From sequence record MZ311865.1: a DNA stretch of 64,000 bases; one strand, 5' to 3'. Numbering within the stretch: position 1 is the stretch's first letter; the number at the start of each line of letters is the position of its first letter. The position numbers were made by a program, and so were the translations under genes. Shown here one piece after another: positions 17,632 through 62,435 of the stretch. The notes below the pieces were generated by a model. The model did not search any database. It was not told the origin of the DNA and worked only from the letters and a program-made list of their open reading frames with translations. Source of the DNA: Escherichia phage vB_EcoM_LNA2.

Positions 17632-17661
17632 ACTATACCATAATCCTACCTTGTTGTAAAC
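17632..17661 (-). promoter_or_regulatory. T4-type early promoter (GTTTAC-N18-TATAGT)
   Basis: Minus strand GTTTACaacaaggtaggattatggTATAGT. Confidence 0.5.
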
Positions 17662-18143: not shown

Positions 18144-18173
18144 ACTATATCATAGTCCTACTTAGTTGTAAAC
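18144..18173 (-). promoter_or_regulatory. T4-type early promoter (GTTTAC-N18-TATAGT) within stem-loop
   Basis: Minus strand GTTTACaactaagtaggactatgaTATAGT; plus-strand TAGGACT/AGTCCTA inverted repeat flanks the -10. Confidence 0.5.
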
Positions 18174-22391: not shown

Positions 22392-22483
22392 AATATTCTC
22401 TTCAGTAGATTCCTAGGGCACTATTACTAAAGACCATATAATCTATCATCTTATGTGTAATAGTGCCTCAGGCTATTCAGGAT

Positions 22484-26133: not shown

Positions 26134-26546
26134 TATTGTTCCTTAAAGTGAGCTTTCAACATTTGATACAAAGACCATGCCTGGTCGTTATTTTCGATAG
26201 TAATCGTCATCACCGGAAATTCAGACAATTCATCAAGTTCACCAGAATCTTGCTCTTCAGACTCTTGATACGGATTTCCAACTTCGTCAAAGAACTCTGC
26301 TTCATTCGTGGAGAGCCAGATAAAGTTTTCATCAAGGATGTCACCGCCTGTTGCGTATCCAACCATGCCAGTAGATGTCACAATTTTAGTAGGACGACCA
26401 AGATGGTCAACATCTAATATTTTAAATGGTTCCATGCCAAGACGTCGTGCGTAAATCCCATTATCAGTGTGGTCTTTAATAAACTCTTCTTGGGCACGTT
26501 TATCTTTAAATTGGTACCATGAGTTAACGCGGAATTTATTAGCCAT
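26133..26546 (-). CDS. hypothetical early protein
   Basis: Track ORF 26133..26564; ATG 26544-26546 gives TAATG coupling with upstream gene; 137 aa, acidic. Confidence 0.45.
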
Positions 26547-26773
26547 TAGTAAGTTTCCTTCCAATAAGTTGTACCATTTTCAGTGATTTCACGGAAGATA
26601 CCATAGATAGGCATTTCGTCACCGAGTTTTTCGTAAACGTAAACCACTTCAGTGTAGCATAAAAATTCAGTCCAGTTTTTCTGTACAACAACTAAATCAG
26701 GATTAAACAGAACATCTTCAAACTCATCGATGTTTGAATCAGTAGTTACGTTTTTAATGATTTGACGTTTCAT
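26546..26773 (-). CDS. hypothetical early protein
   Basis: Track ORF 26546..26818; internal ATG 26771-26773 with GAGGAGAA SD lies downstream of promoter 26802-26830. Confidence 0.45.
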
Positions 26774-26801
26774 AATATTCTCCTCTTGTTTTGATAGGTC
26801 T

Positions 26802-26830
26802 ATAGTATCATAGACCATAGTTGTTGTACA
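26802..26830 (-). promoter_or_regulatory. early promoter (TGTACA-N17-TACTAT) within stem-loop
   Basis: Plus GGTCTA-tagtatca-TAGACC inverted repeat encloses the -10. Confidence 0.4.
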
Positions 26831-27355
26831 TCATTTTAGCAAAATAAAATCAACTTGTTCTGCCAATGAACGTCTGAACATTAATTGACAACTTCCGAGG
26901 ATGAAATCAGGTGCTTCATAGACCGCGATGTAGTATCCTTTAGCTTTCAAGAGTTCAACATCCACCTGGTCATCAAACCATGCATAAACCGCGTCAACAC
27001 TTTCAAATCCAAAATAGAACTCTTGAGCCCAATCTTCGCTCAATTCAAATGTGTGCTCAATTCTATAGTATCTTAAGATATTTTGTTCAAGGAGTTTGTC
27101 TTCATTTACTGTAGGACGATTAGGGACATTATAGTTGTCGCCATGATGGTAGAAGTTACCTGAGAGTATTCCATGCTTATCAAGGAACTCCCATGTTTCT
27201 TCAGAGTTGTCGGTGCCCGACCAACCGTATGGCGAACGAGGTTCTTTATTCCAAGAGGTTTCCCAAATTCTGACGGCTTTACCGTCTTCAATAGCAATTC
27301 CTGGTAATGATTCACGTTGAGTACAAAAACTACGTTCTACGCGGTAAACTAACAT
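26831..27355 (-). CDS. hypothetical early protein
   Basis: 174-aa ORF; 5' UTR carries 12-bp inverted repeat that would pair with the SD. Confidence 0.5.
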   Translation of the reverse strand: MLVYRVERSFCTQRESLPGIAIEDGKAVRIWETSWNKEPRSPYGWSGTDNSEETWEFLDKHGILSGNFYHHGDNYNVPNRPTVNEDKLLEQNILRYYRIEHTFELSEDWAQEFYFGFESVDAVYAWFDDQVDVELLKAKGYYIAVYEAPDFILGSCQLMFRRSLAEQVDFILLK

Positions 27356-27360
27356 ATTAT

Positions 27361-27410
27361 TCTCCTCTGGTTGATATGGTTATAATATCAAAACCAGAGG
27401 AGAAGTAAAC
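27361..27410 (-). promoter_or_regulatory. promoter-in-stem-loop module: 12-bp inverted repeat sequestering SD + internal early promoter
   Basis: TCTCCTCTGGTT (27361-27372) / AACCAGAGGAGA (27392-27403) perfect inverted repeat; GTTTAC 27405-27410; -10 at 27381-27386 in loop. Confidence 0.5.
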
Positions 27411-27414
27411 AACT

Positions 27415-27834
27415 TTATGCAAAAGATGCTGGACAATATTTTTTGATTTGGAACTCAGGAACTACCATGAACTGTCCAGCAAAAACAATGTTATAAAGCT
27501 TGACTCCATCTTCAACCCATTGGTCACTGATGAACCCAGCGACTTGATTCGTTGTCCACGGTGTTCCATCTGTCGCAGAGGCAATGGTGAACTTGTGGTC
27601 TTTTACAACTAAAACCGATCTGCACAGTTTCCATTTGAACGCTTTTTCTTCCGGTTCAATGAATTGGCTTTTAACGTAACCAATGTTACCATCGGCGTCA
27701 CGAACTTTAACTTCGTTACGTCCAAAAACAGGATCACTCACATAAAGAACTTCAACCAACTTCCCGGCAACTTTAGAGCGAGAAGCATCCGATACGTGTA
27801 CATAATCACCAATAGAGAGATTTGCAATATTCAT
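27415..27834 (-). CDS. paralog family member A (139 aa), unknown function
   Basis: Shares C-terminal motif GFISDQWVEDG.KLYNIVF.G.F.VV with next two ORFs. Confidence 0.55.
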   Translation of the reverse strand: MNIANLSIGDYVHVSDASRSKVAGKLVEVLYVSDPVFGRNEVKVRDADGNIGYVKSQFIEPEEKAFKWKLCRSVLVVKDHKFTIASATDGTPWTTNQVAGFISDQWVEDGVKLYNIVFAGQFMVVPEFQIKKYCPASFA

Positions 27835-27843
27835 AATAATTCC

Positions 27844-28341
27844 TTAAGCTTTACGAGGAGACACATAGCGAGTGATTTCAGATTCTTCAACAACTCGGAA
27901 GTCACCTAAGAATACAATATTGTATAGCTTTTTACCATCTTCAACCCATTGGTCGCTGATGAAGCCGCACATAGTATCAGTTTTGCTTGGATAACCGTAT
28001 TCGTCGATGTAATCAAATTCTTTATCGGTTATAAATTCAACGCCTTTGCAAAGGGCCCATTTGAACTGTGTAGTAGGCTCAACGATATCGCTTGAAGCAA
28101 AGTGTGCAGGTGCAACTTCTTCGCTTGAAGCAAATTGGACTCGTATATGTTTTTCCAGGAATTTAGGACTTACGTAAGCATACTGGGCATCTTGTCCGCC
28201 AAAACTGGGGATGATTCGAACTTTAACTTCTTTAACACGTCCCATGCCGTTAGTACGAAGCCCTGCTACTTCAACCAGACGACCTGCAGCTTTAGAACGA
28301 GAAGCAGGAGATACACGAAGGATTTCACCAATAGTAATCAT
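27844..28341 (-). CDS. paralog family member B (165 aa), unknown function
   Basis: Track ORF 27844..28404; start moved to ATG 28339-28341 (MITIGEIL...) because promoter 28372-28402 lies inside the longer ORF. Confidence 0.55.
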   Translation of the reverse strand: MITIGEILRVSPASRSKAAGRLVEVAGLRTNGMGRVKEVKVRIIPSFGGQDAQYAYVSPKFLEKHIRVQFASSEEVAPAHFASSDIVEPTTQFKWALCKGVEFITDKEFDYIDEYGYPSKTDTMCGFISDQWVEDGKKLYNIVFLGDFRVVEESEITRYVSPRKA

Positions 28342-28371
28342 ATTTTTTCTCTCTTTGTTTAAGTTGAATTC

Positions 28372-28402
28372 ATTATACTCCATCCATCCTTGGATGTAAA
28401 AC
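28372..28402 (-). promoter_or_regulatory. T4-type early promoter (TTTACA-N17-TATAAT)
   Basis: Minus strand GTTTTACatccaaggatggatggagTATAAT. Confidence 0.5.
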
Positions 28403-28403
28403 A

Positions 28404-28898
28404 TTAATTAAGAATATTAACTACTGCACTACGTGGAACAACACTAAAATCACCAGCATGAACAACGTTAATAAGTTCAACACCATCTTCAATCCACTGG
28501 TCAGTTACCCATCCACTCACTGGACCTGCGAACGGACGTCGAATTGAAACGGCTTTACACAACAAATCAGTAGGCTCAATAGGCTTAATCAGAGTACCGT
28601 ACATACAAGCGATGTCCATATCAAAGTGGAGACCATCTTTAACAGGTGCTTCTTCAATCAAGAGTTCAAAGTCGGTGCTCGGAAGGGCAGTAGTAGAAAT
28701 TGTACCGTATGAATTTTTAATTTCTAAGAATAACCAAGGGCCTTCAACTTGTTTGATGAAGTTAACAATAGTGAAACTATTACCTTGAGTGGCACCTAAA
28801 ATTTCACAAAACTTTTCATAAGCTCGCACTGAAGCACCGTACCAATTGATTTGTTTTTCGTCTTTCAGGATGTAAGTAGCCGTAGTATTGATATTCAT
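28404..28898 (-). CDS. paralog family member C (164 aa), unknown function
   Basis: C-terminal SGWVTDQWIEDGVELINVVHAGDFSVV aligns with paralogs A/B. Confidence 0.55.
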   Translation of the reverse strand: MNINTTATYILKDEKQINWYGASVRAYEKFCEILGATQGNSFTIVNFIKQVEGPWLFLEIKNSYGTISTTALPSTDFELLIEEAPVKDGLHFDMDIACMYGTLIKPIEPTDLLCKAVSIRRPFAGPVSGWVTDQWIEDGVELINVVHAGDFSVVPRSAVVNILN

Positions 28899-28929
28899 AA
28901 TGTTTTTCCTGTTTGGTTAAGATAGAAAG

Positions 28930-28959
28930 ATTATACTCCAACCATCCTTGGTTGTAAAC
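28930..28959 (-). promoter_or_regulatory. T4-type early promoter (GTTTAC-N18-TATAAT)
   Basis: Minus strand GTTTACaaccaaggatggttggagTATAAT; spacer near-identical to promoter 28372-28402. Confidence 0.55.
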
Positions 28960-28964
28960 TGCTT

Positions 28965-29642
28965 TTATCGCTGTTTTACACTTAACGGGTCAGGATTCTC
29001 AGGGACATCTTCAAGGCCAAGCGCATAACGCTGAGCATATTTTAACATCAAAATATCTTTAGCACAATCATGAATACTATCATGGGCAACGAATCCTTTT
29101 AGCGTACCCATCGGTAATGGACACATACTTAATCCTCGTGTCAACGAGTAAGCTTCGATTGCTGTACGAATATCACGTTGAGCCCAGAATTTAACCGGTT
29201 CTAATTTATCAGTATCAATATCTGGTTCAAGAACACCTTCATCACGATAGAGGTCACGAATCAAATCGACCAAGATTGGGAAGTCAAAGCTCATACCACG
29301 GCACCACATCTGTGATTTCCATTGGTCAACTTTATTAGCTCGACAATAATCTAAAAAGATTTTAATGCCTTCAAGCGTAGTGACATCGTCTTCAGACGGA
29401 GCCAAGTTTTTACGCGCTTCAGCAGATTGTTCTTTCCACCATTTCATAGTGGATTTAGCGAAAACTCGCTTCCCTTTCTGAGAAGCTAAATTAAATTTAA
29501 TTCGCTTACCTCGTTGAACAAGGTCTTCAAATGATTCAACAACTTCTGGGTCGGAATTATATGCAATAACCGCAAGGTCAATAACAGCCGCTTTTGATGT
29601 ATTGCCGAATGTTTCAAAATCTATAATAACATCAGTGCTCAT
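28965..29642 (-). CDS. dexA: exonuclease A (DEDDh 3'-5' exonuclease)
   Basis: 225 aa; N-terminal IIDFETFG Exo I motif; position upstream of dda as in T4. Confidence 0.8.
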   Translation of the reverse strand: MSTDVIIDFETFGNTSKAAVIDLAVIAYNSDPEVVESFEDLVQRGKRIKFNLASQKGKRVFAKSTMKWWKEQSAEARKNLAPSEDDVTTLEGIKIFLDYCRANKVDQWKSQMWCRGMSFDFPILVDLIRDLYRDEGVLEPDIDTDKLEPVKFWAQRDIRTAIEAYSLTRGLSMCPLPMGTLKGFVAHDSIHDCAKDILMLKYAQRYALGLEDVPENPDPLSVKQR

Positions 29643-32840: not shown

Positions 32841-33422
32841 CTAAAAATTCAACATTTTCAAATGAATGATTTTGTATAATCGAGATAAAGGGTCATATTC
32901 TAAGTCTTCAATTTCCACAATCTCAAATCTAGAGATACCTGAGACCATGTACTCTTGTTCAGATTCAATCATATCTAGGATGTCAACACGCGTTTCTTCC
33001 ATAACATGCTTAGGGTTCTTTCCGGCGAGTACAATGTTAACCATGTTTTGGTAGTAATCAAAAATGAATGGAGCATTCCTGAGACTAAGAATAGTGTACG
33101 TCTGATATTCCCATCTCCCAGAGAATTGACGAGCTGTACTGAAATCAGTTGTGAATGATGTTACTCGTCCAGGAGACCAATAGCATCCAACAGAAAGAAG
33201 TGAAAGACGTTCTACTTCTTCTGGAGTTACACCACGGTAGAGTTCTACTGGTACTGTAGAAGTCATATGCTTACGAACAAGATGGTCTAATTCATAGTGG
33301 AAATCCGGGTCTTCCTTAGAATCGGTGCAAGCCCAGAGAATGTTTTGTTCTTGGCGGGTGAATTTGCTATCAATCAGATTTGTTAGGTATTCACGTTCTT
33401 GAAGTTCAGATTGACATGTCAT
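32841..33422 (-). CDS. modB: Mod-family ADP-ribosyltransferase (ModB-like)
   Basis: 193 aa; LYRGVT, SF.TTDFS, SEQEYMV motifs; shares N-terminal ...NILW.C... with adjacent paralog. Confidence 0.6.
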   Translation of the reverse strand: MTCQSELQEREYLTNLIDSKFTRQEQNILWACTDSKEDPDFHYELDHLVRKHMTSTVPVELYRGVTPEEVERLSLLSVGCYWSPGRVTSFTTDFSTARQFSGRWEYQTYTILSLRNAPFIFDYYQNMVNIVLAGKNPKHVMEETRVDILDMIESEQEYMVSGISRFEIVEIEDLEYDPLSRLYKIIHLKMLNF

Positions 33423-33449
33423 GATAGACCTCCATTTAAAGATAAGCCT

Positions 33450-33478
33450 ATCATAACACGAGAGGAGGGAATGTAAAC
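33450..33478 (-). promoter_or_regulatory. T4-type early promoter (GTTTAC-N17-TATGAT)
   Basis: Minus strand GTTTACattccctcctctcgtgtTATGAT upstream of modB-like gene. Confidence 0.4.
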
Positions 33479-38817: not shown

Positions 38818-38847
38818 ACTATACTATAGTCCATCTATAATGTAAAC
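38818..38847 (-). promoter_or_regulatory. T4-type early promoter (GTTTAC-N18-TATAGT) within stem-loop
   Basis: Minus strand GTTTACattatagatggactatagTATAGT; plus GGACTA/TAGTCC inverted repeat. Confidence 0.5.
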
Positions 38848-39601: not shown

Positions 39602-39790
39602 TTATCGAAAATCTGCTTCGAAAACTTTCTCGTCATTAACAAATGCTTTAACTAATGCGTTGTTCACTTCAGCAAGTTGTACCGTAACCCACTCGATTTC
39701 TTCGCGATCACCTGATAACATGATATCTTTAGTGAACATCTCACCGCTTTTAAACCAACCGATAAAAGTAACTTTAGTTAATTTGCTCAT
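39602..39790 (-). CDS. dmd: Dmd antitoxin (discriminator of mRNA degradation)
   Basis: Track ORF 39602..39811; from internal ATG 39788-39790: MSKLTKVTFIGWFKSGEMFTKDI...VNNALVKAFVNDEKVFEADFR matches recalled T4 Dmd. Confidence 0.75.
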   Translation of the reverse strand: MSKLTKVTFIGWFKSGEMFTKDIMLSGDREEIEWVTVQLAEVNNALVKAFVNDEKVFEADFR

Positions 39791-40104
39791 ATTTCCTCGC
39801 AAAATGCCCATTCAGCGTGATAAACTGTAGCACCTTTAGTATCATTCATTTGAACTACGTCTACCGGAGAAATTACTCGATAGAGACGTGGTTCACCTCC
39901 ATAAGAGCGTGCTGCTCGTCCTGCATAAATCTTTGCTAAACCGATATCTTCAGTAAAGAATACACGATCCAAGTTTTTCTTACGTCCAGTTTCAGACAGA
40001 ACTCCTGTTTCCTCAGGAGGACAAAGCATGTTTTCGATGTTAGCTGAACTACTTGAACCGTGATAAAAAATCTTAAATTCTGCTTTACAATCGATGGTTT
40101 TCAT
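39787..40104 (-). CDS. hypothetical accessory protein (105 aa)
   Basis: ORF between 41 and dmd with no remembered T4 counterpart; contains FYHGSS...KIYAGRA...E. Confidence 0.45.
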   Translation of the reverse strand: MKTIDCKAEFKIFYHGSSSSANIENMLCPPEETGVLSETGRKKNLDRVFFTEDIGLAKIYAGRAARSYGGEPRLYRVISPVDVVQMNDTKGATVYHAEWAFCEEI

Positions 40105-40129
40105 TTTGTTCTCCAGTAGTTGATAGGTC

Positions 40130-40159
40130 TATAATAACACAACTACTGGAGAAGTAAAC
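40130..40159 (-). promoter_or_regulatory. T4-type early promoter (GTTTAC-N18-ATTATA)
   Basis: Minus strand GTTTACttctccagtagttgtgttATTATAGACC. Confidence 0.45.
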
Positions 40160-40534
40160 TTAAAAACGTAATTTAGATATATCTGCGTTGATTTCGGTTT
40201 GGTTTGCGTCGTATGCAATTAAACGAACAGCTTTAGATGGATCATTCAATGCATAGAAATGATGGAACATTGCTCGAACGATATCACCATTTACGAGTTC
40301 TACCTGGATAGGAGAACCTTTTTCGAGTTGGAAATGTTCATAGGCTTTGATGGTTCGCAGATAATCAAGTTTTTGATTTCCGGCTCCAACAATTTGTACG
40401 ATACGTTTGCCCATGTTTTCCATACGAGATACAATAGTTTTAGGAGCAAGAATAACGTAGGTTGCCAGCGGAGAAACTACTTCAACAGTGGTGTTTTCGG
40501 TGATTGCAGTAAAAATTGCTTGAGACATATTCAT
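40160..40534 (-). CDS. hypothetical accessory protein (124 aa)
   Basis: ORF immediately downstream of gene 41 on minus strand. Confidence 0.45.
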   Translation of the reverse strand: MNMSQAIFTAITENTTVEVVSPLATYVILAPKTIVSRMENMGKRIVQIVGAGNQKLDYLRTIKAYEHFQLEKGSPIQVELVNGDIVRAMFHHFYALNDPSKAVRLIAYDANQTEINADISKLRF

Positions 40535-40563
40535 AATGTTTTCCTCTTGGTTTGTGTAAGTAC

Positions 40564-40593
40564 ATCATATCATGCCTAGAGGAAGATGTAAAC
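40564..40593 (-). promoter_or_regulatory. T4-type early promoter (GTTTAC-N18-TATGAT)
   Basis: Minus strand GTTTACatcttcctctaggcatgaTATGAT directly after gene-41 hairpin. Confidence 0.4.
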
Positions 40594-60414: not shown

Positions 60415-60624
60415 TTATCTCATTAAATTAAAATAAAAACGTCCATCCTCTTCAATACAGAACTCATATTCAACTGGAGTCCCGTTTATCGAAAATGACA
60501 CGTCATGTGGGTTCAAAGGGTCGATGTCAAAATTAATTTTAAATTCACGACCCAACAGTTTTACCAAATAAGGGATTGCTTCGTCAAAAGGTTCTTCTAA
60601 GTAGTTAGAGATGTCAATTGTCAT
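60415..60624 (-). CDS. hypothetical protein
   Basis: Track ORF 60415..60708; internal ATG 60622-60624 reduces overlap with gene 55. Confidence 0.4.
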
Positions 60625-61171
60625 CCTCATATAAAAAATCCAAACTAGGCGAATCGCTAACAACTTCCTTCTTTTCAGCCCCAGGAGCTTTATAAGCGGA
60701 TTCTTCATAATGCGTCATTTTATCGTAGATGTCTTGAATAAACGTTTCATCTACCAACGCTACCATATCATCGTCATGACTGTCGTAGACATTATGAACG
60801 AAGTAACTATATTTCTTTGCAACTTCCTTACGTTCTTTTTTGATACGTTGGACAAAAGCATTAAAACAAGCTCGAGTTATGTATGCATGTGGGTTATTGT
60901 ACTTAGTTTCGTCGAAATTATGAAGTCCCTTAATAGAGGCTTCAATCCCATCTGCAATCATCTCCTGCTTCCAAGACTGGGTATATCCTGAAAAGTTGAA
61001 ACGTTTGGACAGGCCTTCGGCGATAAGCATAATTGCTAAACCGATGGTATCATTCTGACGAATAATTTTGTTTGGGTCTTTATTATTTAAGAGCTCCTTT
61101 TTCCACTCGATTATAGCGGCGAGAAGCTCTTTATTATTCACATAGTTATTTTTAGGTTTTTGTTCAGTCAT
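60614..61171 (-). CDS. 55: late-promoter sigma factor gp55
   Basis: 185 aa; ...[77 protein letters not shown] near-identical to recalled T4 gp55. Confidence 0.9.
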
Positions 61172-61243
61172 AAGTACCTCTTAGCTCAATTCATAGGTCT
61201 ATTATATCATAATATTTAGAGACCTATCTTAAAGCACGAGATA

Positions 61244-61513
61244 CTATCGGAGCAAACAATAAGCCTGAAACACTTTTTCCATTAAACGTTTGAACTCATG
61301 GATATCGATATAAAGCTCAGTAAGACCGGCATTATAAAGAAAATCTAAAAAGTTCTCATGTGTTTCGTTATAGTCGCCTTCGTTTAATTTAGATACATGA
61401 GTTTCCCAAAAACCAACACCTTTAACGAATGGAAAATACGTGACTTTCATATATTCGTCAACATAAAATTCGCCCAGCTTTTCTTCAGTTATACTGATTC
61501 GAGTTAATTTCAT
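61244..61513 (-). CDS. hypothetical protein
   Basis: 89-aa ORF. Confidence 0.45.
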   Translation of the reverse strand: MKLTRISITEEKLGEFYVDEYMKVTYFPFVKGVGFWETHVSKLNEGDYNETHENFLDFLYNAGLTELYIDIHEFKRLMEKVFQAYCLLR

Positions 61514-62372: not shown

Positions 62373-62435
62373 GATATTTTCCTCATTTTAAGACGATAGG
62401 AAGATAATAACATGACTTCCTATCGTTGTATATTA

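Follow-up and report, generated by a model that had tools for sequence, protein, structure and literature searches.

The leader of the gene motB.2 in Escherichia phage vB_EcoM_LNA2 contains an early promoter that lies within a perfect inverted repeat, and the 3' arm of this repeat carries the Shine-Dalgarno (SD) sequence of the gene. The DNA analysed is a stretch of 64,000 nucleotides (sequence record MZ311865.1; hereafter the window) of a coliphage that belongs to the T-even group and is of RB69/JS09 (Mosigvirus) type, its best matches being 95-99% identical. On the minus strand of the window, an early gene cluster runs from dexA (28965-29642) through three tandem MotB-family paralogs (PF17613; 28404-28898, 27844-28404 and 27415-27834) to a 174-aa gene (26831-27355; ATG at 27355-27353), with cef (26546-26773) and goF in the same cluster. 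The 174-aa gene is the RB69-type orthologue of T4 motB.2; the two proteins share about 33% identity, and the RB69 record annotates its own copy as motB.2. The product belongs to phrog_1106 and has no match in Pfam. The start codon (M1) is kept in the orthologues, in which Y4, R5, V6 and E7 are invariant. An assignment of the 174-aa gene as a further MotB paralog was ruled out by a BLASTP comparison with T4 MotB, which was not significant, together with the lack of a Pfam match.

Anatomy and folding of the motB.2 leader

Read along the minus strand, the element has the order TAA-AGTT-GTTTAC-T-TCTCCTCTGGTT-TTGA-TATTAT-AACCATATC-AACCAGAGGAGA-ATAAT-ATG. The TAA (27415-27417) is the stop codon of the last of the paralogs, a 139-aa MotB-like gene (27415-27834), and lies 10 nt ahead of the 5' arm of an inverted repeat at 27360-27372 and 27392-27404. 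This repeat is perfect, as an earlier note on the sequence had reported, and extends over 13 bp instead of the 12 bp given there, with 19 nt between the arms, which read TTCTCCTCTGGTT (27404-27392) and AACCAGAGGAGAA (27372-27360) on the minus strand. Perfect inverted repeats of at least 13 bp with loops of up to 40 nt occur twice in the window, in comparison with 0.05 in dinucleotide shuffles. The 5' arm, UUCUCCUCUGGUU (27392-27404), is an anti-SD sequence that fills the spacer of the promoter. The 3' arm (27360-27372), recovered by the inverted-repeat search, includes the GAGGAG SD at 27367-27362, in agreement with the earlier assignment of this SD to the ATG at 27353-27355.

The promoter within the repeat is a T-even early promoter of the sigma-70 type. 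Its -35 hexamer, GTTTAC (27405-27410, minus), was found in the promoter scans at the position noted earlier. The complete unit, GTTTAC-N17-TATTAT, was also recovered by an independent generic sigma-70 scan and fits the early-promoter consensus TTTACW-N17-TAYWAT published for T4 and PST from the promoter-early stem-loop (PeSL) cassettes. The extended -10, TGaTATTAT (27382-27390; hexamer 27387-27382, TG 27390-27389), is located in the loop and inner helix; the ATTATA first proposed was rightly placed in the loop, but the best hexamer, TATTAT, is one base off. Transcription is predicted to start at 27374-27377 (about 27375, an A 7 nt past the -10), inside the hairpin loop as the earlier note had supposed, which would yield a leader of about 20 nt, AUCAACCAGAGGAGAAUAAU. 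Since the 5' arm is the spacer that separates the -35 from the -10, upstream of any +1, RNA initiated at this promoter lacks the arm whatever the exact start, as had been reasoned before, and the arm is present only in RNA begun further upstream. Across the window, GTTTAC-N15-19-TANNNT occurs 24 times against 4.6 expected, with 20 of the 24 occurrences on the minus strand.

Two upstream early promoters on the same strand (TTTACA-17-TATAAT, 11/12 each; 28930-28958 and 28372-28400) are the likely sources of read-through RNA, and no terminator was found in a scan of the interval between the upstream same-strand promoters and the hairpin. The hairpin itself was considered as an intrinsic terminator, an identity ruled out by the terminator scan, which gave no match at 27360-27404, and by the absence of a U-tract; the tail reads AAUAAUAUGUUAG and the loop is 19 nt long. 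The late promoter motif, TATAAATA, is absent from 27355-27420, and an Rfam covariance scan of 26400-29100 gave no match at the hairpin element.

Folding of both transcript forms, which the earlier note had proposed, distinguishes the two clearly. For the read-through RNA (27420-27335), the computed fold has an energy of -24.9 kcal/mol (z = -4.14 against shuffles) and consists of 12-13 outer pairs, which cover the entire SD, and a 6-bp inner helix, whereas the RNA from the predicted +1 is unstructured at -0.9 kcal/mol (z = +1.10), leaving the SD open. The computed pairing probability of the SD is 0.97 for motB.2 and 0.99 for a twin element ahead of a gene that starts at 40104, and both are clear outliers among the 98 gene starts of the window. 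Accessibility was also expressed as an opening cost, defined as the energy needed to open the ribosome-docking region from -18 to +13. This cost is 20.8 kcal/mol for the read-through form of motB.2 and 1.7 kcal/mol for the own-promoter form, in comparison with a median of 5.4 kcal/mol for the 98 window genes, and the three highest values in the window are those of the 105-aa gene at 40104 (21.2 kcal/mol), motB.2 and a modB-like gene (19.7 kcal/mol). Among T4 genes, the validated cases soc and 49 reach 9.6 and 17.6 kcal/mol, and I-TevII reaches 13.6 kcal/mol. At the level of computation, these values uphold the proposal that read-through transcripts hide the ribosome-binding site (RBS).

Conservation of the stem and occurrence of the design at other genes

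The motB.2 leaders compared comprise 19 loci on viral contigs from IMG/VR together with those of T4, RB69 and an Enterobacter phage, and represent four T-even genera. The 19 loci were retrieved with an alignment as the query; a search of IMG/VR with a single protein returned only three near-identical loci. Positions in the covariation table were indexed from the AUG, and the MAFFT column count, in which the T4-type 5' arm was 2 nt out of register, was dropped. At least five unrelated stem sequences were found among the orthologues in Mosigvirus, Dhakavirus, Tequatrovirus and Kanagawavirus-like phages. The two strands are UUCUCCUCUGGUU and AACCAGAGGAGAA in Mosigvirus, UUCUCCUCAUG and CAUGAGGAGAA in Dhakavirus, UCCUCGGU-AGUUGUGGU and ACCAUAGCUACUGAGGA in Tequatrovirus, T4 included, and AUGAUGACCUC and GGAGGUCAUCAU in the Kanagawavirus-like phages, and two more variants occur at the loci L013 and L014. 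In every one of these stems the 3' strand is the SD, and the 5' strand lies within the spacer or the -10/discriminator region, upstream of the predicted +1. The Kanagawavirus types include the AUG in the 3' strand as well, with the helix located about 8 nt further downstream.

Outside the SD core, the pairs of the stem covary. Position -13 is occupied by U-A, A-U or G.U, positions -14 and -15 by G-C or U-A, and position -17 by U-A or G-C; overall, the compensatory changes span -13 to -18 relative to the AUG, and the variants within a lineage are wobble transitions. In an alignment-free test, duplexes between cognate promoters and leaders had a mean energy of -16.9 kcal/mol, in comparison with -9.3 kcal/mol for non-cognate combinations, and 1 of 720 permutations was as good. 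In addition, the T4-type, L014 and Kanagawavirus stems contain 2-5 G.U pairs, and the sense RNA is much more stable than the antisense (-23.7 against -14.5 and -17.8 against -8.0 kcal/mol), which points to selection on the mRNA and not on a DNA palindrome. The hairpin accompanies motB.2 across gene contexts, although the slot differs: the gene directly follows dexA in T4, Dhakavirus and Kanagawavirus, and follows the three motB paralogs in the window. The region of the window at 27415-28898, with its relocated motB.2, is hyperplastic, a place of cassette shuffling.

The twin element is located at 40105-40159 on the minus strand, upstream of the 105-aa gene (39787-40104). It consists of a GTTTAC -35 (40159-40154), a 5' arm UUCUCCAGUAGUUG (40153-40140), a TATTAT -10 in the loop (40136-40131) and a 3' arm CAACUACUGGAGAA with the SD (40122-40109), followed by the ATG at 40104. 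Its stem is a perfect 14 bp (-22.1 kcal/mol, z = -4.40), and the gap between the upstream stop codon and the hairpin is 6 nt. The 105-aa protein (phrog_2110) has conserved counterparts in T4-like phages that infect Klebsiella, Aeromonas, Acinetobacter and Vibrio, with one distant match annotated as a putative ADP-ribosyltransferase, and T4 has no annotated gene in the corresponding slot, between 41 and dmd. A sequence search of the PDB with the 174-aa and 105-aa proteins gave no match for either. A weaker copy of the element was observed nearby at 40535-40593 (minus), ahead of a 124-aa gene (40160-40534), with the sequence GTTTAC-a-UCUUCCUCUaGG ... CCaAGAGGAA, a duplex energy of -13.0 kcal/mol and an opening cost of 7.3 kcal/mol.

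Applied to the first 50 kb of T4, the metric used for the window recovers the known controls 49 and I-TevII, and it also flags motB.2, modB, imm.1, mrh.2 and gene 55. The modB-like ADP-ribosyltransferase gene of the window (32841-33422, minus), third of the 98 by opening cost, has a leader hairpin at 33423-33478 in which the 5' strand overlaps the -10 (TATGAT) and the 3' strand takes in the AUG and the last part of the SD. T4 modB (about 13131-13190 of L077) has the same design, with the 5' strand over the -10 and the 3' strand over the SD and AUG, and a structured modB RNA has been mentioned previously (Durand et al., 2006). Gene 55, which encodes the late sigma factor gp55 (60614-61171, minus), has its SD paired within 61172-61250, as does T4 gene 55 (about 40158-40235 of L077). 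For gene 55, the 5' strand is located upstream of a MotA box (GTGCTTTAA ... TATAAT), placing a middle promoter within the SD-sequestering hairpin. The arms are CAUCCUCU and AGAGGUG in T4, and AGUAUCUC and GAGGUACU in the window, a difference that suggests covariation from the sequences of these two phages.

Among 29 early promoter-gene pairs, at least 20 show background complementarity only, and the signal is carried by motB.2 and modB, each in both phages, and by the 105-aa gene. The design is thus gene-specific and not a by-product of promoter composition, and the candidate explanation that it is a generic property of early promoters was rejected on this count.

A proposed translational gate and its alternatives

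In T4, the genes e, soc, 49 and I-TevI have a late promoter within an RBS-hiding hairpin, and their expression is delayed; according to reviews, all known genes with RBS sequestration are late genes. The class as a whole (e, soc, 49 and I-TevI/II/III, together with segB and Aeh1 mobE) shares two features with motB.2. The SD and/or AUG is held in a stable helix on transcripts initiated upstream, and a promoter inside or adjacent to this helix makes RNA that is free of the 5' strand and translatable, the latter as a prediction in the case of motB.2. The strength of the motB.2 hairpin is comparable or greater, with an opening cost of 20.8 in comparison with 9.6-17.6 kcal/mol. Unlike in this class, the internal promoter of motB.2 is a sigma-70-type early promoter instead of a gp55 late promoter (TATAAATA), the gene lies in an early cluster, and the -35/-10 spacer of this promoter itself serves as the 5' arm. 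The earlier note had likened the element to the temporal translational switch of T4. This likeness holds for the RBS-sequestering architecture but fails for the late timing, as the promoter inside the hairpin is early. An early promoter in this place would invert the logic of the switch, as translation would be limited to the gene's own immediate-early transcript. The motB.2 hairpin would then confine expression to the earliest transcripts rather than delay it, in contrast with the validated T4 cases, soc and 49.

A further T4 system that bears on this leader is RegB. The RegB/S1 target is a single-stranded GGAGRAYARAA, usually at an early-gene SD; secondary structure inhibits RegB. The SD of T4 motB.2 is one of only two intergenic GGAU sites that are efficiently cleaved in vivo. 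In the window, GGAGAAUAAUA (27355-27365, minus) matches this consensus at 10/11 positions, and the twin leader, GGAGAACAAAA, matches at 11/11. As a near-consensus site at the SD of an early gene, whose orthologous site in T4 is cleaved, the motB.2 site is like the known RegB/S1 targets. Unlike these, it is predicted to have two conformations set by the promoter used: the GGAGAA half of GGAGAAUAAUA would be base-paired in the read-through RNA and single-stranded only in the own-promoter isoform. Because RegB needs the same open SD, the translatable isoform is predicted to be open to inactivation by RegB as well, and the read-through RNA to be both silent and protected. No description of conditional RegB accessibility of motB.2 was found in the accessible literature.

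The element also resembles the PeSL cassettes of T4-like phages (Arbiol et al., 2010; Comeau et al., 2014). Like these, it is intergenic and combines a stop codon, an AT-rich tract, a consensus early promoter, a stem-loop over the -10, an SD and an ATG; it flanks a small accessory open reading frame (ORF) and is tied to an indel and to gene relocation among related phages. In the five described PeSL subclasses, the stem-loop as a whole is located ahead of the transcription start, and the SD forms a module of its own, whereas the motB.2 helix straddles the predicted +1 (about 27375) and its 3' arm (27372-27360) is the SD. The authors of the PeSL studies propose terminator or attenuator and recombination roles and do not discuss translation; PeSL stem-loops lowered downstream lacZ expression in RB49/phi1.

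The indel is seen in phage F2 (NC_054913.1; L083, 927-987; L084), which shares with the window the order dda-dexA-three motB-like genes-cef, with motB.2 missing. Its junction between the motB-like genes and cef is chimeric, in that a motB.2-type -35 and UUCUCCUCU arm are joined to a cef-type -10 and leader, and the transplanted arm pairs 9/9 with the cef SD, AGAGGAGAA. The recombination partner implied by this junction is the downstream flanking early-promoter cassette for cef, which in the window is ATGTAC-N18-TACTAT at 26802-26831 (minus). On sequence grounds, the junction is consistent with PeSL-mediated deletion or insertion of the motB.2 cassette, and the motB.2 element can be read as a mobile, recombining promoter cassette of the PeSL kind as well.

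Taken with moderate confidence, the favoured reading is that of a translational gate that is selective for one transcript isoform and forms part of an early-promoter cassette. RNA from an upstream promoter would carry both arms and fold co-transcriptionally into the 12-13 bp helix and the 6-bp inner helix. The folded read-through RNA would lock the motB.2 SD, so that ribosomes could not load and RegB, needing single-stranded GGAG, could not cut there. RNA from the own promoter would start in the loop, without the 5' arm, and its open 20-nt leader would be well translated and at the same time be a near-consensus RegB/S1 substrate. According to the folding model, only this short own-promoter transcript is probably translated. 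The outcome would be a short immediate-early pulse of MotB.2 synthesis, which would end as the early promoters shut off and RegB accumulates, and which later read-through could not prolong. At the DNA level, the same cassette (stop, -35, arm, -10, arm/SD, ATG) would move or delete the gene as a PeSL-like recombination module.

Several observations weigh against such a gate. The window's own stem is purely Watson-Crick, so that alone it cannot separate RNA-level from DNA-level selection, and one member of the clade, G2469, has an uncompensated C.A mismatch in the middle of the stem. The strong stem of the twin element is found in Mosigvirus only, with no more than UCUCC/GGAGA in the neighbouring lineages and nothing in the distant orthologues; the design can thus be dispensable or of recent evolutionary origin. 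Some structured RNAs (modB and a motB mutant) were cut by RegB in vivo, perhaps while nascent, and such hairpins may therefore not be absolute blocks. No MotA-type middle promoter was seen within about 7 kb upstream, which makes the temporal dimension uncertain; both isoforms may be early, weakening a strictly temporal reading. A search of the accessible literature for a genome-wide 5'-end map of T4 or RB69 found none, and in the same literature motB.2 is named in a single paper.

An ordinary PeSL, in which the stem-loop attenuates or insulates upstream transcription and provides homology for recombination while the pairing of the SD is incidental, is an unlikely explanation of the element. 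The composition of the element matches the PeSL description, the F2 junction falls inside the element in a phage without motB.2, the slot of the gene differs between T4 and the RB69-type phages, one GenBank record (H112) annotates a 'terminator' here, and downstream lacZ expression was reduced by the PeSL stem-loops of RB49/phi1. However, there is neither a U-tract nor a terminator match, and the stem is of mixed AU/GC composition instead of the G-run/C-run type that was tested. An ordinary PeSL also fails to account for the SD as the 3' arm of at least five variants that diverged independently, for the sliding of the Kanagawavirus helix along with the SD and AUG, and for a 5' arm that is always upstream of the +1. 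The small -10 hairpins of most early promoters miss the SD, making SD capture a distinct, gene-specific property. The PeSL function is nevertheless compatible with the gate as a second role, at the DNA level. A role in RNA stability or processing is rather improbable; here the hairpin would guard the 3' ends of the upstream motB-paralog mRNAs against exonucleases, or shield the polycistronic RNA from RegB or RNase E, with translational control as a by-product. The hairpin is stable and intergenic, early SDs with a single-stranded GGAG are targets of RegB, which structure inhibits, and T4 motB.2 is a bona fide RegB site. A protector of 3' ends, on the other hand, needs neither the SD nor a position straddling the promoter, and shielding from RegB and blocking of ribosomes are physically the same event, a difference of emphasis and not a true alternative.

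It is very unlikely that the element acts as a DNA palindrome, either as an operator for a dimeric protein (e.g., an adjacent MotB-like protein) or as a promoter-modulating cruciform. The perfect Watson-Crick arms around the -10 in both the motB.2 element and its twin would fit this, as would the neighbouring MotB paralogs, whose family is annotated as modifiers of transcription. The orthologous stems, however, need 2-5 G.U pairs, which makes both the antisense strand and the DNA palindrome far less stable, and the arms differ between lineages and between both loci of one genome, which leaves no common operator; the one constant is complementarity to the SD. Translational coupling is highly improbable; here the hairpin would be melted by ribosomes that finish the upstream ORF, and translation of motB.2 from read-through RNA would depend on upstream translation. 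The stop codon is indeed near the hairpin, at 10 nt for motB.2 and 6 nt for the twin. Given its footprint and helicase geometry, a ribosome that terminates translation extends no more than a few nucleotides beyond the stop codon. Stop and stem are separated by at least 10 nt in the motB.2 leader of the window, by 13 nt in T4 and by about 24 nt in the Kanagawavirus types, so that the 13-bp stem would stay intact and its melting by coupled ribosomes is unlikely, and under coupling the conserved internal promoter would be needless. Chance or hitch-hiking is barely credible, namely that promoters prefer pyrimidine-rich spacers, which are complementary to purine-rich SDs by coincidence. Several early promoters of the window do have CT-rich spacers directly after GTTTAC, but the pairing continues far outside the SD core and shows compensatory changes, 0.05 repeats of this kind are expected from shuffles, and cognate pairs beat non-cognate pairs in the permutation tests. 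Each of these alternatives is less able than the gate to explain pairing of the SD by a strand that the own promoter cannot transcribe, the one invariant of the comparison.

More tentatively, it is possible, though doubtful, that T-even phages carry an unrecognised class of 'own-promoter-only' gates, with the anti-SD strand placed within an early promoter, in its spacer or -10 (a middle promoter in gene 55), mobile with their cassette and giving a minutes-long pulse of expression sharpened by RegB. As part of a recombining PeSL-like cassette, such a gate would travel with its gene and could be grafted onto a neighbour, as with cef in F2. The gates appear to be placed preferentially on host-modifying, potentially toxic proteins, namely modB, the ADP-ribosyltransferase-like 105-aa protein and motB.2.

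If the gate reading is correct, RBS sequestration by a hairpin with an internal promoter would not be limited to delaying late genes of T4, and would restrict an early gene in the reverse sense. It would provide a mechanistic basis for a translational separation of immediate-early and read-through expression, and a concrete function for at least one subclass of PeSL stem-loops, which have so far been discussed in terms of attenuation and recombination. Three T4 systems, namely early promoters, RegB and modular gene shuffling, would be joined in one 55-nt element. This would aid the reading of RNA-seq and proteomic time courses as well as the design of phage expression cassettes. As the motB.2, modB and gene 55 cases are present in T4 itself, they are open to direct testing by existing genetics.

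Neighbouring features and minor observations

Within the cluster upstream of motB.2, the 186-aa ORF (27844-28404, minus) probably has its true start at an internal ATG at 28341 (MITIGEILRV..., compared with MIINIGELARV in T4 MotB). The strong early promoter at 28400-28372 (TTTACA-17-TATAAT) falls within the nominal 5' end of this ORF. The sole Rfam match in 26400-29100 is to Y_RNA at 28659-28749 (minus), within a motB-like coding sequence; it scores 24.7 bits against a gathering cutoff of 38 (E = 0.05) and is almost certainly due to chance.

Short hairpins that hold the -10 in their loop (e.g., GGACUAUgauauAGUAGUCC) were observed at the early promoters 18144-18173, 17632-17661, 38818-38847 and 26797-26816 (minus). 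These end near the +1 and miss the SD, as in the classical PeSL type, and also occur at the dmd and motB promoters of T4. Perfect 11-bp inverted repeats with -10-like loops (GATTATATGG and TGTTATTAT) are located at 22417-22467 and 62393-62426, just upstream of minus-strand gene starts, with the SD outside their 3' arms.

A UAUCAAC/UAUCAAA motif recurs around the predicted +1 of many early promoters (e.g., 27379-27369, 40128-40118 and 26788-26780, minus). It is common to the motB.2, 105-aa gene, cef and other leaders, and may represent a conserved initial transcribed sequence.

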